64,000 nt of DNA from Candidatus Saccharimonadia bacterium (GTDB taxonomy: Bacteria; Patescibacteriota; Saccharimonadia; UBA4664; JBBRNT01): NCBI GenBank assembly GCA_038230095.1, contig JBBRNT010000005.1, positions 18,619 to 82,618 on the forward strand, read 5' to 3'. The notes under the pieces are model-generated. The model saw nothing but the letters and a program-made list of their open reading frames with translations. It made no database searches and was not told where the DNA came from. The stretch's first letter is position 1. Each line of letters begins with the position of its first letter. This document shows, piece after piece, positions 5,408 to 46,248 of the stretch. The translations under genes were made by a program, and so were the position numbers.

Positions 5408-6982
5408 TTAGCGCCAAACAAACCAGAAGCCAGCGCCGTTGCCCACACCTGTAAGTAGTGGGCCACCCAGGAGCCAGACCGCTACTACGGCCCCACCGGC
5501 AAGCAACATAAGGCTGAGTCCGAGAATGATTGCCGGGGCGAGCTGAGCGCGGCTATCATTACGGCCAAGCGTAAGGGCAACTAGGGCGTCTGGCAGGTGT
5601 GCTGCTACGGCTTCGCGATAGGCGTGGAGCCACAGAACAACAACGTAGACCAGGACGTAGTGGTAGGCAACGCCAATAGCAACGATAGAAACGAATAGAA
5701 TAAGGCTGAGATAGGTGGCTAGGTCGCCAATGGTGCCCAGAGTGACGGCCGCAGTGCCGATGATTGCAAGCGCGAGGAGACCTACGCCCAAAACTACTGC
5801 AAGTGATAGTGCGGCCACACCCAGAGTATGGCGCCGCCTAGCGCGGTAGAGCCGGCCACCGACCTTCCAGGCTGCCAGGGGGCTGAGAGCCCCAAGAACC
5901 ACCGCTTGGCTGCTATAGACTGTTCGTGCCCCCACCGCGATTGCTAGTAGAAGCGCCGCGCCACCACCGACTGCCTGCACCGCGTACTGAACAACAGCAC
6001 CGTAGCCTAGGGTAGGTGCGAGGTACACGATAGCAATGCCGGCCGTTATAACGGGTATTACCAAGACTGCGCCAAGTAAGTCGACGCCAATGAGCCCGGG
6101 AAGGGAGTTCCAGGCAGCTACTGACCAATCACCAGGGTCTACCGGTCGCTCATCAAGCTGTTTCGCGTAGCCATGCGTCAGGGCCGCCAATGCCCACACC
6201 TTAGTTAAAATACCAAGAACGCCATAGCCTACTACAGCAATAAGGCCGATAAGCCCCAGGTGCGTTGCTAGGCCGGTTTTGGAGGCAACAAGTAGCGACC
6301 AGAGCATGCCGGCGGAGTGACGACTCCAGGTGAGGGACTGCCCCCGGATTGAACCAAGCTTAATGGCGAACCACAGTGCAGCGGGTACGGCGACAACAAT
6401 AGTGGCGGTTAGTCCAAATCGTCGACCAACTGGGCTCGAACTATGGTGGTGGGCTAGACTGTGCGCCCCGCTGAGCGCCATCATGGGCCCGTGACCGGTA
6501 TTGATACGTCCATGGGGCGAAGTGCTACTCGATCTCGCGGTGCCCATAAGTGGCTTGCTTGGGCTAGCGTGCGGTAGGAGGGCAGGAACCGGTAAGACAG
6601 TGGGCAGAGCTGGGCCAGCGGGACTACCAAAACTTCCGGTAGCCCGAGGCCGCGGACGGGCAGCTGCAGGCTGGCTCTTGGGAGTGCTCATGCTGTCTAC
6701 CATGGGCTGAGGGGAGGACTGGGGACTGGGGGCTGGGACTTTTGGCAGGGGTTTTAGCGCCGGGTGCTCGCTGGGTGTGAGCTTGGCGGGCGAAGTGAGC
6801 GTGCGTTCATGAGCGGTTGGGCCAGTAGTAATAGTAACCGCCGCCGGCGTGGGTAGCTTGGGTACTGCCGGTGCTGGTTGGGCAGTTACCGGTTTTTCGG
6901 GTATAAGGAATCCGCAATTCAGGCAGAAGCTTTGACCCTGAATTGCAACATTATCATCGGCCTGACAGTTTGGACAAACCAT
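5408..6982 (-). CDS. hypothetical protein: N-terminal zinc ribbon, Pro-rich linker and a polytopic (about 10 TM) membrane domain
   Basis: MVCPNCQ...CLNCG CxxC..CxxC motif; ~150 aa of P/S/A-rich linker; then many hydrophobic helices. Confidence 0.6.
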   Translation of the reverse strand: MVCPNCQADDNVAIQGQSFCLNCGFLIPEKPVTAQPAPAVPKLPTPAAVTITTGPTAHERTLTSPAKLTPSEHPALKPLPKVPAPSPQSSPQPMVDSMSTPKSQPAAARPRPRATGSFGSPAGPALPTVLPVPALLPHASPSKPLMGTARSSSTSPHGRINTGHGPMMALSGAHSLAHHHSSSPVGRRFGLTATIVVAVPAALWFAIKLGSIRGQSLTWSRHSAGMLWSLLVASKTGLATHLGLIGLIAVVGYGVLGILTKVWALAALTHGYAKQLDERPVDPGDWSVAAWNSLPGLIGVDLLGAVLVIPVITAGIAIVYLAPTLGYGAVVQYAVQAVGGGAALLLAIAVGARTVYSSQAVVLGALSPLAAWKVGGRLYRARRRHTLGVAALSLAVVLGVGLLALAIIGTAAVTLGTIGDLATYLSLILFVSIVAIGVAYHYVLVYVVVLWLHAYREAVAAHLPDALVALTLGRNDSRAQLAPAIILGLSLMLLAGGAVVAVWLLGGPLLTGVGNGAGFWFVWR

Positions 6983-7070: not shown

Positions 7071-7484
7071 CTAGGCGTGACGCGTGGCGTAGTGCTTCTT
7101 AATGTGACGCACGGTCAGAGCATAGTAGAGCATATAAAGGACAATAATGGTTGCAAGGGAACCCCCGGTGATCCAGCTCACATAGTCGGGGGCGTTTGGA
7201 TCTTCCGGTGCGCTATCGGCCTCACCTGCTAGATAGGTGGTGACAGTAAGCTTGTCGGCGGTTGGCTGAAGCGTATTAAGATTGGGGGCAGACAGGGACT
7301 CGCTCTGTCTGTCTGCTATAGCCTGGAGCGCCTGCGAGGAGCCGGACTGTAACATGCTGGAGTCGAGAGACTGGTTGGCCGCAGCAGGAGTAGACGCTGC
7401 CGGACCTAGATCCGAAGCTGCATCGGCCAGGCAGAGAGCCGGGACGGTGCTAAGGGCAATAATAATTAGCAATCGAGGTAGCAT
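7071..7484 (-). CDS. hypothetical secreted protein with a signal peptide and a C-terminal TM anchor plus basic tail
   Basis: MLPRLLIIIALSTVPALCLA signal peptide; C-terminal LATIIVLYMLYYALTVRHIKKHYATRHA. Confidence 0.5.
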   Translation of the reverse strand: MLPRLLIIIALSTVPALCLADAASDLGPAASTPAAANQSLDSSMLQSGSSQALQAIADRQSESLSAPNLNTLQPTADKLTVTTYLAGEADSAPEDPNAPDYVSWITGGSLATIIVLYMLYYALTVRHIKKHYATRHA

Positions 7485-7516
7485 TAGCTTATCTTAGCGC
7501 GCCTGGGAGGAGTTGG

Positions 7517-8248
7517 CTATGGTTTTCGCGGTCCTGTGGGTCCGAAACGCTCGGTCTTGATGCTCTCTGGCGCGTAGCCCACCTCCACCAGCTTACTGCT
7601 CACTGCCTCTACGAATGGCGTTGGCCCGCAGATGAAGAACTGCTTGCTTTCCCCTACCGTCTCATGCAGCATTTCGGCATCAAAGATACGCCGATACCCT
7701 GTCCAGCCTTCTGGCGCTACATTGGTGAAGCTAAGAAAAGTGTTGGGATCGTCCCATAGAGCGGCATACATGAGCGACTCGGGCTGCCGGACGCTGTAGA
7801 GGACACGCATAGGCGCGGGCGTGGCGGCTTGCTGGTGAGTACGCCACATGGCAACAAGTGGCACAATACCGGAGCCGCCGCCCAGAAGCATGGTGGGAGT
7901 GGGATCCTCGGGATGCCAGGTGAAGTAGTGACTACCGGCTAGTTTTATCTCCAGCTGCATCCCTGGCTTGGCGTAGCTACCTAGGTAACCAGAGACTTCA
8001 CCCCCCTCTAGTACTTGCACTCCCAGATCAAAAAACATACTGCCGTCGTCGGCGCTGGCTATAGAATAGGCGCGCACAGCCTGGTAGCCGTCCTCACCCG
8101 TCAGTCGGACGTCCAGGTGCTGGCCCGCTAAGTGTGGGGGCTTGTTCTCCAGCTGCAAACGCAGGCCTATAGCCTCGCCACTCTCTTGCCAGCGATCGGC
8201 AATGGTAGCTATCTGCCAGTCGTGATGGGTCTCATTACTCAAGCTCAA
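7517..8248 (-). CDS. FNR-like FAD/NAD(P)-binding oxidoreductase (ferredoxin/flavodoxin reductase family)
   Basis: RAYSIAS (RxYS FAD-binding motif) and LLGGGSGIVP (NAD-binding motif). Confidence 0.75.
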   Translation of the reverse strand: MSLSNETHHDWQIATIADRWQESGEAIGLRLQLENKPPHLAGQHLDVRLTGEDGYQAVRAYSIASADDGSMFFDLGVQVLEGGEVSGYLGSYAKPGMQLEIKLAGSHYFTWHPEDPTPTMLLGGGSGIVPLVAMWRTHQQAATPAPMRVLYSVRQPESLMYAALWDDPNTFLSFTNVAPEGWTGYRRIFDAEMLHETVGESKQFFICGPTPFVEAVSSKLVEVGYAPESIKTERFGPTGPRKP

Positions 8249-8702
8249 GGACTAGCTCCTTTACTCGTTCCTTAATGTCGTCGCGGGTAATGCGTGTCTG
8301 ATCGCGATCAAAATCGACGGGATCTGACATGGACCACTCGATAACGTCTGGTTCGCCCTGGAGCCAGTCTGGCCACTCATTGGTTGGCGCCAGAACTACC
8401 ACTAGATCGAAGTTAGCCAGATCTGATTCATGGAGCTGTTGGCGCACGCAGTGGCGAATGTCTATACCCTCCTCGTCCATAACTGCGATAGTGTCGTTGG
8501 CGCGAGGTGCTTCGTCCAGTGTCTTGCCAGGCTGCTCGACGGCGTAGCCCCGGGACTCAGCCGGCATGTCTGTCAGATCCTGATAGAGTGCTGCTGCCAT
8601 CTGGCTGCGCCCGGTATTGGCCCTGCAGACGAACAGAATACGAACGCTAGTCGCCACTGTACCGCTCTTCTTTCCAGGGGTCACCGTGATTGTTGTAGCC
8701 AT
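8235..8702 (-). CDS. low-molecular-weight phosphotyrosine phosphatase / ArsC-family protein; start uncertain
   Basis: CX5R(S) P-loop ILFVCRANTGRSQMAAAL. The ATG at 8702 would overlap the upstream gene by 56 nt. An in-frame GTG at 8657 is an alternative start. Confidence 0.7.
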   Translation of the reverse strand: MATTITVTPGKKSGTVATSVRILFVCRANTGRSQMAAALYQDLTDMPAESRGYAVEQPGKTLDEAPRANDTIAVMDEEGIDIRHCVRQQLHESDLANFDLVVVLAPTNEWPDWLQGEPDVIEWSMSDPVDFDRDQTRITRDDIKERVKELVLELE

Positions 8703-9255
8703 TTACTTCCCAGAACCCCGGCGCGTCGTGGTCGAGCAACTGTAGCCCGCGCACCCACTTGGCGCTTTTCCAGAGGTATAGATGCGGCACGAATAGCCGC
8801 GCTGGTCCGCCGTGCTGGGCTTCCAGGGGTGCGTTATCGAAATTAAAAGCCAGCATAGCTTGGCCATTCAAGACGTCCGCGAGCGGTAGATTGGTGGTGT
8901 AGCCTCCGTCGCAGTAGGCAACCACATACTTGGCCTCTGGCTTGGGCACAGCGAGCTTAAATAGGTCGTCCAGCGATACGCCCTGCCAGGTGGTATCTAG
9001 CTTGCTCCAGCGCGTGACACAGTGAATATCGGTATTCATGGTGCTCATGGGCAGTTTCTGCATCTCGTCCCAGCTCCACTCCATCTCATGCTCGACAAGT
9101 CCTTCTATCTTGAAGCTCCATTGTTCGGTGGGGACGTGCGGCGTAGGCCCATAGGTGAGCACAGGCCAGTCGGTAACCAGGAATTGTCCGGGTGGTACAC
9201 GCTTAGGATCGACAGCATCACGTTTGCGGCCGAATCCAGCATTAATAATAGACAT
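8647..9255 (-). CDS. sulfite-oxidase-family molybdopterin-binding oxidoreductase; a single-domain YuiH/MsrP-like catalytic module
   Basis: Oxidored_molyb-like region with the conserved Mo-ligand Cys context DIHCVTRWSK; ~200 aa. Confidence 0.75.
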   Translation of the reverse strand: MSIINAGFGRKRDAVDPKRVPPGQFLVTDWPVLTYGPTPHVPTEQWSFKIEGLVEHEMEWSWDEMQKLPMSTMNTDIHCVTRWSKLDTTWQGVSLDDLFKLAVPKPEAKYVVAYCDGGYTTNLPLADVLNGQAMLAFNFDNAPLEAQHGGPARLFVPHLYLWKSAKWVRGLQLLDHDAPGFWEVNGYNNHGDPWKEERYSGD

Positions 9256-9270
9256 ATATCCTCCTCGCTA

Positions 9271-10674
9271 TTACGACTTCTTCGCTGGAATCACAGACTC
9301 GATAAAGACATCCTTAAGCCGCTTGGCTTCGAGCGGAGTGGGAGCGCCAGTGAGTGGCTCCCGGGCATCGCCTGTCTTTGGAAAGGCCATGACTTCGCGA
9401 ATGTTGGGCTCGCCGGCAAAAATCATGATAAGGCGCTCGAGGCCCCAGGCAATACCACCATGAGGTGGGGCGCCGAACTTGAAGGCCTCGAACATGTGGC
9501 CGAAACGCTCCTGGATGACATCCTGGCCCATGCCCATAATCTCAAACACACGCTTGAGGGCCTCGGGCTGGTGATTGCGAATGCTGCCACCGCCAATCTC
9601 ATACCCATTGAGTGCAATGTCGTACTGGGTGGTGAGAATTTCATTAATATGAGACTTGTCCATAAGCCAGTCGCGATGCTCCGGTACTGGTGCCGAGAAA
9701 GGATTATGCGTAAATGTCCAGCCTCCACCGTCGGTCTTCTCAAAGAATGGGAAGTCTATAACCCAGCAGAAGGCCAGCAGATTGGGATCGCTTTTGTCTT
9801 CACGCAGGTCTGGCTTGTCACTGCCGTACTTCTCCATAGCTTCAGCGTAGGTAAGCCGTGGGAATGGGAGTGTCTGGATACGCTTTTCAGGCGCATGCTT
9901 TGCTACCAGCTCGATGAGCAGGGCTTCATTCAGGGCCATGACGTCCTCGCGCTCAACGAATGACAGCTCCATGTCTAGCTGGGTAAACTCTGGCTGACGG
10001 TCGCCGCGCTGGTCCTCGTCACGGAAGCAGCGAGCAATCTGGAAATAGCGACCAATGCCCCCGACCATGAGCAGCTGCTTAAACTGCTGCGGTGACTGAG
10101 GCAAGGTATAGAAATCGCCCGGGTGGAGGCGTGAGGGCACAATAAACTCACGGGCGCCCTCGGGTGTGCCTTTGGTGAGGTTGGGCGTCTCTACCTCTAT
10201 AAAGTCCTGGCCGTCCATATAGTCTCGGATACTTTTGACGACGGCGTGGCGGAGGCGCAGATTGCGCGCCATGCGCTCGGTGCGCAGGTCTAGGTAACGG
10301 TACTTCAGACGGACTTCGTCGTTGACTGCCGAGGTGTCTTTATTTATCTCAAATGGCAGTTCCATAGACTCCGATAGTACCGTGACGGAGCTAGCGCCCA
10401 GCTCTACCTCGCCGGTGACAATATTCTTATTTATAAACCGCTCGCCGCGTTTGCGTACCTCACCGGTAATCTCAACGACATACTCATTGCCCAGCTTGGG
10501 AAGCGAGGATGGGTCGTCTATGACCACCTGAAGCAGTCCGCTGTAGTCCCGGAGGTCCATGAAGGCAATCTTGCCCATGTCACGGATAGTGTGTACCCAG
10601 CCTTTGACGGTGACAGTCTTACCGATATGCTGGGTAGTTAGCTTGGTTGAAATGTAGGGAGTGTTTTTTGCCAT
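9271..10674 (-). CDS. aspS: aspartate--tRNA ligase, bacterial type but lacking the GAD insertion domain
   Basis: N-terminal OB anticodon-binding domain; motif 2 FRDEDQRGDRQPEFTQLDMELSF; YGSDKPDLR; motif 3 GGIAWGLERL. At 467 aa it is shorter than the typical ~590 aa. Confidence 0.9.
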   Translation of the reverse strand: MAKNTPYISTKLTTQHIGKTVTVKGWVHTIRDMGKIAFMDLRDYSGLLQVVIDDPSSLPKLGNEYVVEITGEVRKRGERFINKNIVTGEVELGASSVTVLSESMELPFEINKDTSAVNDEVRLKYRYLDLRTERMARNLRLRHAVVKSIRDYMDGQDFIEVETPNLTKGTPEGAREFIVPSRLHPGDFYTLPQSPQQFKQLLMVGGIGRYFQIARCFRDEDQRGDRQPEFTQLDMELSFVEREDVMALNEALLIELVAKHAPEKRIQTLPFPRLTYAEAMEKYGSDKPDLREDKSDPNLLAFCWVIDFPFFEKTDGGGWTFTHNPFSAPVPEHRDWLMDKSHINEILTTQYDIALNGYEIGGGSIRNHQPEALKRVFEIMGMGQDVIQERFGHMFEAFKFGAPPHGGIAWGLERLIMIFAGEPNIREVMAFPKTGDAREPLTGAPTPLEAKRLKDVFIESVIPAKKS

Positions 10675-10732: not shown

Positions 10733-11890
10733 CTAGTCGTCCTGGCTTGAGCCTTGGAAAAAGCTTCGCATAGCTAGGCCAAACGGGAGTAAGAGTACAT
10801 AGAGTTTCAGGTCCAGGTAGCGCCGGATTATCCAGCCGGCATAGCCAAAGACCTGAAAGCCCTCAGTCTCGACGGCGCACCATGACGGGCCGCAGGGTAT
10901 GGCACCAATAGGCTTCTTCGGCGCGTAGCCGAGCGGGTCGTGGCTACGGGCCTGTCGCTTTAGATTGGTGGTGACAAAGTCTGCATCGTAGATGGCGGTC
11001 TGGGCCCAGCCGCTATAGGTAGTAAGGGCGCTGTCGCCCAGGACGTAGATGTGGTCGGTGGCTTGGAGCTGGGCGTCGACTATGACCTTGCCACCTTTGC
11101 CAAGATTAAACAGCTCAGGATGTGCGGCGTAGATAGGGTTGTTGGTAACGCCGGCTGTCCAGACAACGGTATGGGTCTTAATGGTACCCTCTGGTAGCTC
11201 CAGCGTATTGGCGGTCTCGGCTTTGACGGCCGTATTGGTATAGATCTTAATTCCTAGCTGCTTTAGACGTTTTTGGACGGCGCGGGAGAACTCCTCTGGT
11301 AGAGCTGGCAGAATGCGTGGAGCAGCCTCTACGAGGATAATGCGGAAGCTTTTGCTCTGCACAAAGTAGCGCTTACGCAAGCGCCCCAGGTATGACACCA
11401 TTTCGGCCGCCAGCTCGACACCAGTCGGGCCAGCGCCTACTACTACGTAGTTCAGGTCCATTTTATTATCACCAGTTAGCTCCGTATGCAGGTGTGAGCG
11501 AAGCCGCAAAGCCTCGTCTACTGTCTTAATGCCAAAGGAGAACCGGTCTAGACCCGCTATGCCGAAGAATGCGGTGACACTCCCGAGTGCCATAATGAGC
11601 TTGTCGTAGTGGTGGTCCTTGCCATCGGCGGTACGGACGACCTTGTCCTTAGAGTGTATTTTTTCCAGGCGAGATAGCGCAATATGAACATTACCTATGC
11701 CTTCGAATATTTCGGCTAACGGGACTTTGACTGCCAAGGGTGAGTGGCCTGTACTGGTACGATACAGTGCGGCGTGGTACTCCCAACAATATTTATCCGA
11801 GATGAGCGTTACCTGGAAGTGCGGATTACCGGCGAGATTCCGGGCGGCTTTTACCCCTGCAAACCCGCCGCCAATAATAACAATCATCAT
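10733..11890 (-). CDS. ndh: type II NADH dehydrogenase (NDH-2) / FAD-dependent pyridine nucleotide-disulfide oxidoreductase
   Basis: Two dinucleotide-binding GxGxxG motifs (IVIIGGGFAGVKAA and VVVGAGPTGVELAAE). Confidence 0.8.
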   Translation of the reverse strand: MMIVIIGGGFAGVKAARNLAGNPHFQVTLISDKYCWEYHAALYRTSTGHSPLAVKVPLAEIFEGIGNVHIALSRLEKIHSKDKVVRTADGKDHHYDKLIMALGSVTAFFGIAGLDRFSFGIKTVDEALRLRSHLHTELTGDNKMDLNYVVVGAGPTGVELAAEMVSYLGRLRKRYFVQSKSFRIILVEAAPRILPALPEEFSRAVQKRLKQLGIKIYTNTAVKAETANTLELPEGTIKTHTVVWTAGVTNNPIYAAHPELFNLGKGGKVIVDAQLQATDHIYVLGDSALTTYSGWAQTAIYDADFVTTNLKRQARSHDPLGYAPKKPIGAIPCGPSWCAVETEGFQVFGYAGWIIRRYLDLKLYVLLLPFGLAMRSFFQGSSQDD

Positions 11891-25018: not shown

Positions 25019-25495
25019 TTATTTAGCAGCAGGCTCAGTGGATTCACGCTTCTGGCTCGCTACGAGCTCTATTGTACCACCGACAGCTTCAATTTTAGAA
25101 ATAGCAGTTTTGCTTGCAGCTTGGACCTTGACCGTGAGCTTCTTGGTGAACTCGCCGTTACCCAGGAGCTTGATAGCCAGGTGGGCTGACTTAACGAGCC
25201 CAAGCTCAGCGAGCATGGTAGCGTCGACAGTAGCACCAGTCTTAAACGTCTCAAGGCTGGACAGATTAACCACTTGGAAGTCCTTGTGGTTGAGTGCCCG
25301 GAAACCACGCTTCTTTGGGAGACGCTTAGCTAGCTTGTTCTGACCACCTTCGAAGCCGACACGTACACCACCACCAGTGCGAGAGTTCTGACCCTTGGTA
25401 CCACGACCAGCGGTTTTACCACCACCGGCAGATATACCACGGCCAACGCGCTTGCGCTTAGGCTGGGCACTGACTGAGAGTTCGTGAATTTTCAT
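25019..25495 (-). CDS. rplO: 50S ribosomal protein L15
   Basis: [36 protein letters not shown]... Confidence 0.93.
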   Translation of the reverse strand: MKIHELSVSAQPKRKRVGRGISAGGGKTAGRGTKGQNSRTGGGVRVGFEGGQNKLAKRLPKKRGFRALNHKDFQVVNLSSLETFKTGATVDATMLAELGLVKSAHLAIKLLGNGEFTKKLTVKVQAASKTAISKIEAVGGTIELVASQKRESTEPAAK

Positions 25496-26043
25496 TATTT
25501 CTTCTCCGTCTTAGGCGCTTTTGGCTCAGTTGCAGCCTTAGCTTCGGCCTTGATTGTGGCAACCACCTTCTCGGCAGACTTATCAGTCTGGCCAGTAATA
25601 CGGCGGAGCTGCGTCAGACCAATAATGGTGGCGTAGGCGTTGTTGACCTTGCTGGATGAGCCAAGTGACTTGGCGAGGATGTCGCGGATACCAGCGGCTT
25701 CAACGACACTACGGACAGCGCCACCGGCGATAACGCCTGTCCCCTCAGAAGCCGGCTTCATCATGATCTGGGCGCCTGAGAAGCGAACATTGACCTCATG
25801 AGGAATAGTGTTGCGGACCATAGGTACAGTGATCATGTGCTTCTTAGCAGTAGCGACAGCTTTAGCGATTGAGGTCATGACCTCTGAGCCCTTGCCGACA
25901 CCAACGCCGACGCGGCCTTTGCCGTCACCCACTACTACAGTGGCGCGGAAGCGGAAGCGACGCCCACCCTTGACCACACGGGTCACACGAGCAATATCGA
26001 TTACTTTCTCTTCAAACTCTTTGATTTCAGGTGTAATAGCCAT
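25495..26043 (-). CDS. rpsE: 30S ribosomal protein S5 with a Lys/Ala-rich C-terminal tail
   Basis: ...[32 protein letters not shown]... Confidence 0.93.
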
Positions 26044-33956: not shown

Positions 33957-34574
33957 CTACTTCTCGAGTTCGGCTTCATGGTAGACCACAGAAGCCAGTA
34001 CACCACCGACGAGCGGTCCTACGCTGTAGAGTAGGAGCCAGGCCCAGTGCGTCGACAAATTACCAATATCAAACAGTAGCGGTCCAAGTCCAACGGCGGG
34101 GTTGAAGGCGCCCCCAGAGATAGGGCCGCCCGCATAGGCGCCGGCCAGGACAACAAAGCCGATAGCCAGGCCAAAGTAGCTATTGCCCTTCGTGGCCTTC
34201 GAGACAGCGGTATAGAGTACCGTGGTGACAAGGGCAAAGGTGAAGATGACCTCCACGAGCATGGCCTGGCCGAAGCTGGCGTCTATACCCGGCTGTACAG
34301 TAAACACGGTGCCCTTCAGGATGAAGTAGACAGCTGCAGCCACAAACGCTGCTGCAAGCTGGGTGGCGGCGTAGATGAGCGCCTGGTGCCGCTTAATGGC
34401 GCCGCGCAGGTACAGAGCCAGGGTAACGGCAGGGTTGTAGTAGGCACCGGAGATGGCGCCACCCATATAGACCATAGCCACTAGCACTGCACCAATGGCG
34501 AGCGGATTGCCTGTAAGCGCAACAACCAGAACTAGGAAAAATGTGCCAATAAACTCAACAACGTATTTTCGCAT
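33957..34574 (-). CDS. aquaporin / MIP-family channel
   Basis: Two NPA boxes (YNPAVTLA and FNPAVGLG) within a 6-TM fold. Confidence 0.88.
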   Translation of the reverse strand: MRKYVVEFIGTFFLVLVVALTGNPLAIGAVLVAMVYMGGAISGAYYNPAVTLALYLRGAIKRHQALIYAATQLAAAFVAAAVYFILKGTVFTVQPGIDASFGQAMLVEVIFTFALVTTVLYTAVSKATKGNSYFGLAIGFVVLAGAYAGGPISGGAFNPAVGLGPLLFDIGNLSTHWAWLLLYSVGPLVGGVLASVVYHEAELEK

Positions 34575-35558: not shown

Positions 35559-36281
35559 CTAGTCTATGTCGATACGGACAAAGCCCTCTGCCAGCATCAT
35601 GCCGCCGGCTTGACCCATCTGTGCAGCCACGCCCCGCATCATGGTCTGGGTGGCGGCAATGTCGGCCATTTGGCTGGCGTGGGCGGCCAGGGCCTCCATT
35701 TTGGTCTCAATACTGGTACTAATGTCCTCGTAGTAGTTACTGTGCTCGAAGTTGACGAGCAGCACGGTCCTGGTCTTATGTGGCTCGTGGCCCTCGGCCA
35801 GGAGCTCAGGGAAGCTGAGATGATCGCGTGAGAGTGGGAACACGGCATCCAGGGTGGCTTGCCCTGCGGCACGGTGATCTGGATGATTGATAAAGCCGAA
35901 GCTGGCAACGTAGACCATCGTAGGGTCCATAGTCATAACCACTTCGGGCCGCGTCTGGCGGATAAGACGGGCAAGATCGCGCTTAAGCTGGCGGGTTACT
36001 TCGAGAGCGCCGTCTTCATAGTCTAGGAACTGAACACTCTTAACACCCAGGATGTCTGCCGCAGCCTGCTGCTCTTGCTTACGGGTAGCAGTGAGCTGGG
36101 CGGGCGTCAGCGTCTTGTCTTCGGAGCCCTTGCCACCATCAGTAATAACAACGTAGTGGACTTCAGCGCCGGCAGCGGCCCACTTGGCAACGCTGCCAGA
36201 CATACCAAATTCTAGATCGTCTGGGTGGGCAGCAATGCAGAGGACGCGCTTGGGGTGGAGTGGTTCAAAAGTGGGATTCAT
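35559..36281 (-). CDS. PIG-L/LmbE-family N-acetylglucosaminyl deacetylase
   Basis: AHPDDLE metal-binding motif near the N-terminus; conserved HPDH motif later. Confidence 0.82.
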   Translation of the reverse strand: MNPTFEPLHPKRVLCIAAHPDDLEFGMSGSVAKWAAAGAEVHYVVITDGGKGSEDKTLTPAQLTATRKQEQQAAADILGVKSVQFLDYEDGALEVTRQLKRDLARLIRQTRPEVVMTMDPTMVYVASFGFINHPDHRAAGQATLDAVFPLSRDHLSFPELLAEGHEPHKTRTVLLVNFEHSNYYEDISTSIETKMEALAAHASQMADIAATQTMMRGVAAQMGQAGGMMLAEGFVRIDID

Positions 36282-45279: not shown

Positions 45280-46248
45280 TTAGTCCAGGTCCCAACTGAG
45301 TTGGACGGTGTCTTGGCTTGTGGTGGTCTTCCAGAGCGGGGGCCTAGCGCGGTCCAGTACACGGAACTGGGCCTGGCGGAGGGCTAGAATGGCGGAATCG
45401 CTGCTATCTACGCCATGAGGCGTACGGGCAATGAGTCCACCCATGTGCCCGTTGGCCTGCCCGAGGGTAACGCTGCCAGATAATGCTCCATGGAGCTTAC
45501 CCCGCACTCGACGGCGGGCCGCTCGAGTCGGGCGCATAGTAGCCTCCCCAGTGGCAGCAATGTAGGTGATAGCTACGCCGCAGATGGTAACCGACTGCCT
45601 TGTAATGTCACTGTACTTGGTCTTCTTGTCGTTGCAGCGGAAGCCGGCCTCTTCAATAATGCGACGGATCCGGCGACGCTTGCGCTCGCCAATGGGGCTC
45701 GGCGAGGAGAAGGTAAGGTCATCGGCAAACCGAGTGTAGGCCATACCGCGGTAGTCCTGACCGGTCATGAGCAGCATTAGCCGCCTGTCTATGTGGTGGT
45801 CGCAGTAGTGATTGAACAGATCAGGCGAGGCTGGCGCGCCCGTAACCAAACCAACCTGCCCGCCGGGATAGCGCACCAAAGCATAGCGGAGCAGCCAGGC
45901 CGTTAGCCGGTCGCTATCAAGTCCGGGCTCGTAGCCTGCAAGCAACCGGGCTAGACGCCCAGCATCTACATTCTGGAAGGCATGAGCCAGGTCTAGCTGG
46001 TAGAAATAGCGGTGGTGCTGGTGCGGGAAGGCATTACTAATGCTACCTCGGCCCGGCACGGCGCCGTGGGCCTTGACCATGGGGTGGTTCTGGCTCCGTA
46101 GCCACGCGATGAGACGGCCATGTAGCTCGCTCATACTGGGGTTTGGTGGCCAGAAATTGCGACCACTCGCATCACGGTACATACCCAGCCAAGCAGGGTT
46201 GGCACCGGTCGGTAGCTCAAACGGGAAAGGATCCACCGGCACCTCCAT
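45280..46248 (-). CDS. reverse transcriptase, retron-type; RT domain only, with no maturase or endonuclease domains
   Basis: 322 aa with these motifs: GRGSISNAFPHQHH (NAxxH-like, RT1), YFYQLDLAHAFQNV (RT2), GLVTGAPASPDLFNHYCD (RT4, SP not SQ), YTRFADDLTF (YxDD, RT5), and a VT..G-like TRQSVTICGVAI in the thumb region. A GGAGA RBS precedes the ATG. Confidence 0.8.
   Translation of the reverse strand: MEVPVDPFPFELPTGANPAWLGMYRDASGRNFWPPNPSMSELHGRLIAWLRSQNHPMVKAHGAVPGRGSISNAFPHQHHRYFYQLDLAHAFQNVDAGRLARLLAGYEPGLDSDRLTAWLLRYALVRYPGGQVGLVTGAPASPDLFNHYCDHHIDRRLMLLMTGQDYRGMAYTRFADDLTFSSPSPIGERKRRRIRRIIEEAGFRCNDKKTKYSDITRQSVTICGVAITYIAATGEATMRPTRAARRRVRGKLHGALSGSVTLGQANGHMGGLIARTPHGVDSSDSAILALRQAQFRVLDRARPPLWKTTTSQDTVQLSWDLD

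Follow-up and report, generated by a model that had tools for sequence, protein, structure and literature searches.

A putative two-component molybdoenzyme system in a Saccharimonadia genome, interrupted by a phosphatase-fold gene

To our knowledge, every characterised molybdoenzyme of the sulfite oxidase (SUOX) or MOSC fold that is paired with an NAD(P)H-dependent flavoreductase runs in the reductive direction, the examples being nitrate reductase, mARC and the MsrPQ-Fre system. The sulfite oxidase (SO) family also holds a clade that a review lists as an 'uncharacterized, single-subunit, cytoplasmic' group (PMC7759655). Here, a gene of this clade (the Mo gene) and its neighbours were analyzed in a 64,000-nucleotide stretch (hereafter the window) of contig JBBRNT010000005.1 (positions 18,619 to 82,618) from a Candidatus Saccharimonadia bacterium. 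The Mo gene is followed by a gene for a protein of the low-molecular-weight protein tyrosine phosphatase (LMW-PTP)/ArsC fold and then by a gene for an FNR-like flavoprotein. Sequence comparisons indicate that the first and the last of these form the conserved unit, while the middle one is an insertion. A literature search returned no characterised member of the Mo/FNR family, and nothing relevant on the gene pair, on 'YuiH' or on DUF6510, a domain encoded next to the pair in some other bacteria.

The three open reading frames (ORFs) all lie on the minus strand, at 8647..9255 (Mo protein, 202 aa), 8235..8702 (155 aa as the longest ORF) and 7517..8248 (FNR-like flavoprotein, 243 aa, TTG start), and the coordinates given in the first-pass annotation, an earlier reading of the same DNA, were reproduced exactly. 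Its three domain calls agreed with Pfam, in each case above the gathering score. The Mo protein matched the SUOX-fold molybdenum cofactor (Moco) domain Oxidored_molyb (PF00174; 140.8 bits against a cut-off of 24, E = 4e-41, profile positions 2-169 of 169), the middle protein matched LMWPc (PF01451; 53.8 bits against 23.2, E = 3e-14), and the flavoprotein matched both FAD_binding_6 (PF00970; 43.4 bits, E = 4e-11) and NAD_binding_1 (PF00175; 42.4 bits, E = 1e-10). No curated equivalog in NCBIfam fitted any of the three, and the scan gave sub-threshold similarity alone (MsrP, SoxC, SorA/SorT, ArsC types, and various components of reductases).

The Mo protein belongs to a family with more than 8000 matches, about 200 aa in length and 60-65% identical across phyla, which carries the NCBI name 'sulfite oxidase-like oxidoreductase'; the closest relative in the reference-genome scan was 58% identical. 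Related loci (n = 27) were compared with tblastn, and in 19 of them an FNR-like gene lay immediately downstream of the Mo gene (17 of 25 after two duplicate pairs were collapsed). These paired loci comprise every locus with a Mo identity of at least 54%, plus locus L024 at 46%. They span five phyla (Actinomycetota, Chloroflexota, Dormibacterota, Eremiobacterota, and Bacillota), are labelled Actinomycetota, Solirubrobacterales, Microbacteriaceae, Dormibacterota, Eremiobacterota, Ktedonobacteraceae, Chloroflexi or Bacillota, and have flanking genes that differ from locus to locus. The window keeps the same order, Mo then FNR, interrupted by one inserted gene. In addition, a chain of 449 aa that joins Oxidored_molyb, FAD_binding_6 and NAD_binding_1 (P0324) came up when the FNR protein was used as query in an exhaustive search. 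Its Mo portion aligns with the window protein over the full length at 44% identity and has all signature motifs, and by its domain content P0324 unites the two partners as a Rosetta-stone fusion. Judged by gene order and fusion, the conserved unit is thus two genes, a Mo domain followed by an FNR-like reductase, and not three. The first-pass annotation had proposed a three-gene redox operon, of which the coupling between the Mo enzyme and its FNR-like partner is borne out by the adjacency and the fusion, while the phosphatase-fold protein drops out as a third member.

The search with the FNR protein also recovered a fusion of FNR with DUF6510 (P0305). DUF6510 is a small four-cysteine protein with two CxxC-type motifs (read in L004, L006, and P0305), and its gene follows the FNR gene in 6 of the 19 paired loci (e.g., L004 at 7355-7648, L006 at 7319-7585, L009, L012, and L024). 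It is absent from the Saccharibacterial loci, and tblastn found no copy in the window.

Several lines of evidence agree with the SO-family assignment of the Mo protein and with an intact Mo-ligand cysteine, which the first-pass annotation had recognised in the context HCVTRWS. In the phmmer alignment with Escherichia coli YedY (1xdq, counted from chain position 63), Cys79 of the motif TDIHCVTRWS pairs with Cys102, the Mo-ligand cysteine of YedY, and it is invariant in alignments of 16 and of 30 sequences. The Moco-site residues of the window protein were read as D76, H78-C79-V80-T81, Y119-T-T121, H148-G-G-P151, R153, Y160, and W162-K-S-A-K-W167; the columns invariant in comparison with homologs from large genomes (Actinomycetota, Chloroflexota) are D76, C79, V80, T81, Y119, H148, G149, P151, R153, Y160, and W162-K-S-A-K-W167, and all invariant Moco-site residues are kept in the Saccharibacterial copies. 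An AlphaFold2 model (pLDDT 81) puts Cys79 at the end of a full-length beta-hairpin (strands 71-79 and 83-94). When this predicted model was searched with Foldseek, the best match was YedY 1xdq (TM-score 0.70, root-mean-square deviation 1.9 Å, 24% identity), followed by SoxC, nitrate reductase, and sulfite dehydrogenases, all with E-values of 1e-10 or better, while the match to the pterin-binding protein PruR was weaker (TM-score ~0.51). Strong purifying selection acts on the Mo gene, with a dN/dS of 0.04 against locus L028 and 0.13 against locus L001 (dS near saturation).

The N-terminus of the Mo protein (MSIINAGFGRKRD) has neither a twin-arginine (TAT) nor a hydrophobic (Sec) signal, and the protein is therefore cytoplasmic. 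PF00174 was the sole domain detected in its 202 aa, with no C-terminal dimerisation domain. As the residue at Cys+3 varies across the family (R, K, T or G), an anion-binding arginine is not conserved at this position. The MsrP-like label of the first-pass annotation had to be dropped: the protein scored 67.2 bits against a cut-off of 207 for the MsrP/YedY equivalog (NF003767), it lacks the TAT signal, and a Pfam scan of the neighbouring genes gave no MsrQ-like partner. The sulfite dehydrogenases SoxC, SorA, and SorT were rejected as well (46 vs. 420, 32 vs. 600, and 27 vs. 570 bits, respectively). A separate observation concerns a homolog of 319 aa on an ENA contig of 1220 nt (P0003), in which the Mo domain is partly duplicated in tandem, so that a single chain holds two copies of DIHCVTKWSKL and two of HGGPARLLVPHLY.

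The FNR-like protein has the FAD-binding motif RAYS, the NAD(P)-binding motif GGGSGIVP and a C-terminal CGP (ICGP), and its gene is also under purifying selection, with a dN/dS of 0.24. Its best match in the PDB was NADH-cytochrome b5 reductase (2eix, E = 1e-14), ahead of BenC reductase and the reductase domains of flavohemoglobins; it scored under all NCBIfam equivalog cut-offs, and no named subfamily applies. Neither the three proteins nor those encoded next to them gave a heme or Fe-S domain in scans with Pfam and NCBIfam. Of the analogy with nitrate reductase and mARC drawn in the first-pass annotation, the logic holds, with NADH-cytochrome b5 reductase as the best match of the reductase, while the heme or Fe-S mediator of those systems has no counterpart.

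The distribution of the middle gene sets it apart from the pair. An LMWPc gene follows the Mo gene in loci L028 and L029 alone, where the Mo protein is 88% identical to that of the window and where both contigs end ahead of the FNR gene; this sister-lineage copy of the inserted protein is 77-78% identical. In loci L001 and L030, with Mo proteins 74% and 73% identical, the Mo gene is directly followed by FNR, and the synteny shared with the window (NDH-2-like, aspS, Mo, FNR, two unknown membrane proteins, secE, nusG) continues without an LMWPc gene. None of the 27 related loci has an LMWPc gene within 6 kb of the pair. Few relatives of the inserted protein are detectable, the 78% ortholog being followed by homologs at ~43%, which sit in unrelated housekeeping contexts of small-genome-like contigs (next to GlyRS/RecO, SmpB, and DUF218/HSP20); a metagenome scan added one partial match of 42%, located at the edge of a contig and with neither a Mo nor an FNR gene close by. 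Since the gene is limited to relatives whose Mo proteins are at least 88% identical, is absent from L001, L030 and the 27 loci, and has its homologs elsewhere, the comparisons indicate that it is a recent lineage-specific passenger insertion and not a link in an electron chain, where the first-pass annotation had put it, in between the Mo enzyme and the reductase. A foreign origin could not be read from composition, as GC content (0.556) and GC at third codon positions (0.60) are indistinguishable from those of the neighbouring genes.

The inserted protein itself appears intact. Its P-loop (C26-X5-R32-S33, in the ArsC-like context CRANTGRSQMA) and D127-P128 are kept, and C26, R32, S33, and D127 are invariant in alignment A1, while C85 is not conserved. 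The best PDB matches are of ArsC types (1e-9). A resolving cysteine pair, seen in more distant thioredoxin-type (Trx) ArsC-like homologs, was not found at the positions aligned to the cysteine pair of Synechocystis ArsC, and an identity as a Trx- or glutaredoxin (Grx)-coupled arsenate reductase (TIGR02691 and TIGR02689) was rejected on this ground and on the scores (37 vs. 174 and 45 vs. 158 bits). Against L028, pN is 0.15 and pS 0.75 (dS saturated); because the gene is thus under purifying selection, the protein is presumably a functional enzyme of the LMW-PTP fold with a single Cys, which would act as a phosphatase or as an arsenate reductase that depends on thiols. Nothing mechanistic ties it to the Mo/FAD pair. 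An arsenic-resistance context was considered and discarded, as no ars genes lie nearby and the MIP channel of the window is 25 kb off. This short MIP-family channel (205 aa, 33957..34574, minus strand) and a PIG-L/LmbE-family deacetylase (35559..36281, minus strand) are encoded amid translation genes, in the interval that separates the S10 cluster from tuf. As arsenite can pass through MIP channels and PIG-L enzymes take part in low-molecular-weight thiol synthesis, both are at most loosely relevant to an ArsC-fold gene.

The gene junctions suggest how the insertion took place. The Mo gene starts 15 nt past the stop codon of aspS (AspRS by Pfam; 9271..10674, minus strand), which lies directly upstream here and in the syntenic loci L001, L028, and L030, and a Shine-Dalgarno (SD) sequence, GAGGAGG (9260..9266, minus strand), was read 4 nt ahead of its ATG. 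The FNR gene has its own SD sequence, AAGGAG (8256..8261, minus strand), with a 7-nt spacer to the TTG at 8248; this sequence lies inside the 3' end of the inserted gene, which the TTG overlaps by 14 nt. Of the two overlaps in the first-pass annotation, this one (8235..8248) holds, while the 56-nt overlap between the Mo gene and the inserted gene (8647..8702) is probably overstated and an artefact of taking the longest ORF. The true start of the inserted gene is probably the GTG at 8657 (140 aa, with an 11-nt overlap with the Mo gene), because the ATG at 8702 is contained in the stretch of the Mo gene that codes for a conserved Asn-Gly-Tyr (aATGGCTAC), because the same alternative-frame pseudo-N-terminus (MATTTTQTPGRK) is also attached to the FNR gene call in L001, because the L028 ortholog is called from a GTG that overlaps the Mo stop codon by 11 nt, and because all homologs begin ~5 residues ahead of RILFVC. 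More generally, the ATG at window position 8702, or 3505 in L001, opens an alternative-frame ORF (MATT(I/T)T.TPG.K) that gene callers join to the next gene, which inflates apparent overlaps and N-termini (e.g., the 268-aa FNR call in L001). In L001 FNR has an in-frame candidate start at a GTG in the context aGTGGCTAG, and since the inserted gene has the same GTG context, it seems to have captured the original coupled start site, after which FNR would have gained a new SD sequence and TTG within the 3' end of the insert.

Overlapping or abutting genes with good SD sequences are consistent with co-translation. In the window nearly every gene is on the minus strand and the gaps are short, and overlap alone is therefore weak evidence. 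In a consensus scan, neither internal junction (Mo/insert and insert/FNR) had a site resembling a promoter or a terminator; the sole such matches at gene boundaries were a promoter-like site upstream of aspS (10714-10686) and a terminator-like hairpin (7044-7028) past the gene that follows FNR, and a weak promoter-like match lay inside aspS (9452-9425), all of which are consensus matches and not evidence of function. The gene following FNR (7071..7484, minus strand, 32 nt downstream) encodes a 137-aa protein with a signal or transmembrane segment and no family match; it has a positional ortholog at the equivalent position in L001 and L030 and lies outside the module in other phyla. By spacing and consensus matches, aspS is probably co-transcribed with the Mo gene, and the transcription unit, which is probably longer than three genes, may run from aspS through Mo, the insert, and FNR to this 137-aa gene.

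Two further neighbours were recorded. Upstream of aspS, an NDH-2-like flavoprotein (Pyr_redox_2, 385 aa, 10733..11890, minus strand), a respiratory-type enzyme in a genome of the candidate phyla radiation (CPR), keeps its position in L001. A 524-aa gene (5408..6982, minus strand), which together with the 137-aa gene lies between FNR and secE, encodes an N-terminal CPNC...CLNC zinc-ribbon, a Pro/Ala/Ser-rich linker, and a polytopic membrane domain; genes of similar size occur at the equivalent position of both in L001 and L030, and no Pfam family was found for any of them.

We lean, with modest confidence, towards a two-component cytoplasmic molybdoenzyme system in which electrons pass from NAD(P)H over FAD to Mo in order to reduce a small oxo-substrate, and in which the inserted gene is a passenger. 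The FNR-like flavoprotein would take a hydride from NAD(P)H onto FAD, and the electrons would pass to the Mo centre of the SUOX-fold enzyme, where the metal is predicted to be held by Cys79 and molybdopterin, with no heme or Fe-S mediator encoded at the locus. The substrate would most plausibly be an S-oxide, an N-oxide or an N-hydroxylated compound. The two genes form a conserved module that is probably translationally coupled, and in this lineage the inserted LMW-PTP/ArsC-fold gene would have taken over the coupled start at the Mo stop codon. The reductive direction is proposed because of the analogy with nitrate reductase, mARC, and MsrPQ-Fre and because the predicted fold is most similar to that of the reductase YedY.

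Several points weigh against this proposal. The clade has no characterised member, so that substrate and direction are drawn from analogy, and we know of no characterised precedent in the family for a direct transfer from FAD to Mo without a one-electron carrier. The DUF6510 protein, absent at the window locus, might be the missing electron carrier or an accessory subunit. P0324 is the sole clean fusion, and an assembly frameshift could in principle create such a chain. Co-transcription is at most suggested, by spacing and consensus scans. Finally, Pfam found no genes for Moco biosynthesis or molybdate transport among the 47 ORFs scanned in the window, which covers 64 kb of a roughly 1-Mb genome. 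If the proposal is true, direct FAD-to-Mo transfer would make this the simplest NAD(P)H-driven molybdoenzyme chain known. In any case, neighbourhood and fusion identify a partner for the ~200-aa cytoplasmic SO-family clade, in a module present in many soil phyla, while the three-gene arrangement matters less, as an example of a passenger gene caught in a translationally coupled operon.

The main rival to the reductive reading is the opposite direction of flow, in which sulfite or some other reduced compound is oxidised by the Mo enzyme, with the electrons passing via FAD to NAD(P)+, i.e., a cytoplasmic sulfite:NAD(P)+ oxidoreductase for sulfite detoxification. The step from sulfite to NAD+ is thermodynamically downhill by established redox potentials, the family name is 'sulfite oxidase-like', and homology to SoxC, SorA, and SorT can be detected. 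A further hint comes from a Gordonia transcriptome, in which a 'sulfite oxidase-like oxidoreductase' that may belong to the same subfamily was up-regulated on organosulfur compounds as sole sulfur source (PMC7661421); the gene is not among the entries of the supplements. Nevertheless, we judge this direction unlikely, as the Mo protein scores far under the sulfite dehydrogenase cut-offs given above, lacks the dimerisation domain, belongs to a family with no conserved arginine at Cys+3, and has a reductase, YedY, as its nearest structure. Moreover, we know of no characterised SO-family dehydrogenase with an FNR-type acceptor. A true functional trio, in which the Cys-phosphatase/ArsC protein either reduces arsenate or another oxyanion and is recycled by the flavoprotein or regulates the Mo enzyme through phosphatase activity, for example, appears improbable. 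It would fit the overlap of the inserted gene with both neighbours, the SD sequence that this gene supplies for FNR, its purifying selection and conservation in the sister lineage, and the intact catalytic Cys, Arg, and Asp. Against it stand the direct Mo-FNR junctions of L001 and L030, the 27 loci lacking the gene, the unrelated contexts of its homologs, the missing resolving cysteines, scores under all ArsC equivalog cut-offs, and the lack of ars genes nearby; ArsC-type enzymes also depend on thiols and not on flavoproteins.

Two other alternatives touch on the cofactor and on the adjacency itself. CPR genomes generally lack cofactor pathways, and together with the 47 window ORFs devoid of Moco-synthesis genes this would suit a SUOX-fold protein that binds a simpler pterin or no cofactor at all and is non-catalytic or has a different role. 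That such proteins exist is shown by PruR, a SUOX-fold pterin binder that does not use Moco and that has Trp in place of the Cys, a truncated hairpin, secretion to the periplasm and DcpA as partner (PMC11194511). The window protein differs in retaining Cys79 and all family-invariant Moco-site residues, in the full-length hairpin and the closer match to YedY (0.70) than to PruR (0.51) of its predicted model, and in the lack of a signal peptide and of DcpA, and on these grounds a PruR-type pterin binder was ruled out; with the strong purifying selection and the retained reductase partner also counted, we regard the wider Moco-free alternative as very improbable. Least credible of all is that the genes are independently expressed housekeeping neighbours brought together by chance. 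A dense region in which nearly all genes point the same way would allow for it, as would the weak promoter-like match inside aspS, but the Mo-FNR adjacency recurs in unrelated contexts across phyla and the two partners occur fused, which strongly disfavours it.

The host lineage bears on how the enzyme could obtain its cofactor. The relatives of the window RpoB at 76-81% identity that carry names are almost all Candidatus Saccharimonadia or Saccharimonadales, which turns the first-pass guess of a CPR-type genome into a placement in Saccharimonadia. The window has the ribosomal-protein, EF-G/EF-Tu, and rpoBC clusters, and S5 (25495..26043, minus strand) abuts L15 (25019..25495, minus strand) with no L30 gene between them (S5 and L15 assigned by position and length), an arrangement typical of CPR. 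Two observations from elsewhere in the window concern its gene content. The L1 ORF (3029..4075, minus strand, 348 aa) has its Ribosomal_L1 domain at 142-331 only, with either an over-extended GTG start or a long N-terminal extension, and L1 of L001 is likewise long (338 aa). An ORF of 322 aa with an RVT_1 domain (45280..46248, minus strand, E = 6.6e-10) lies within 44-50 kb, in a stretch of raised GC (0.58-0.59) amid ORFs without Pfam matches, and could be part of a diversity-generating retroelement, a retron or a group II intron remnant.

Saccharibacteria are a lineage of obligate episymbionts with genomes of ~1 Mb, whose host is typically an actinobacterium. What makes the module most interesting is that it is under selection in such a reduced CPR genome. 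A selected Moco enzyme in Saccharibacteria would mean either that some CPR keep Moco biosynthesis or that a labile cofactor is scavenged from hosts, and either answer would refine the picture of CPR metabolic dependency. The bolder scenario, which we hold to be doubtful, is that a Saccharibacterium without Moco synthesis of its own loads the enzyme with cofactor or precursor scavenged from its host, the module being a minimal, mediator-free NAD(P)H-FAD-Mo reductase; if true, it would be the first interbacterial Moco piracy. Acquisition of Moco across species has a precedent in the dietary uptake by Caenorhabditis elegans (PMC7849362, PMC9793310) and in the Moco-synthesis-deficient nematode Haemonchus contortus (PMC7619442), while our literature search gave no paper that connects Moco enzymes with Saccharibacteria or CPR.

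Set against the described systems, the locus is closest to the pairs annotated as 'sulfite oxidase-like oxidoreductase' and 'FAD-binding oxidoreductase/ferredoxin reductase', with or without DUF6510, in Actinomycetota, Chloroflexota, Eremiobacterota, and others, with which it shares the subfamily (55-64% identity), the invariant residues, the length of ~200 aa, the downstream FNR gene, and the tight coupling, and from which it differs in the inserted phosphatase-fold gene, the lack of DUF6510, and the CPR host. For the inserted protein, the fold, the CX5R(S) P-loop with N-x-G-R-S-Q-M-A, and the Asp-Pro general acid are shared with ArsC (Synechocystis 2l17, Staphylococcus aureus pI258, Corynebacterium glutamicum 3rh0) and with LMW-PTP/YwlE, while the resolving Cys pair, equivalog-level scores, and ars operon context of the Trx- and Grx-coupled ArsC are missing. 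PruR resembles the Mo protein in being small and essentially the SUOX fold alone, and departs from it in having no Mo-Cys, a truncated hairpin, a periplasmic location, and DcpA as partner.

Among the molybdoenzymes with known electron donors, E. coli YedY/MsrP shares the C-V-x-x-W-S context of the cysteine, is the closest solved structure, and performs a reductive Mo chemistry that is ultimately fed by a flavin reductase (Fre), but it is periplasmic, TAT-exported, of ~300 aa, and receives its electrons via the heme-b membrane protein MsrQ. Eukaryotic nitrate reductase likewise combines a SUOX-fold Mo domain with an FAD/NADH domain of the cytochrome-b5-reductase type and uses NAD(P)H as donor, an architecture that P0324 mimics, whereas the window proteins are separate polypeptides with neither a heme b5 nor a dimerisation domain, and sequence identity to nitrate reductase is ~22%. 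The systems of mARC with cytochrome b5 and NADH-cytochrome b5 reductase, and of YcbX/YiiM with CysJ, join a small Moco enzyme to an NAD(P)H flavoreductase for the reduction of N-hydroxylated and N-oxide compounds, but they have the MOSC fold and use a cytochrome b5 or 2Fe-2S mediator, none of which is encoded at the window locus. The module is widespread and annotated in databases while experimentally uncharacterised, and its version in the window is heme-less relative to the characterised NAD(P)H-to-Mo chains.

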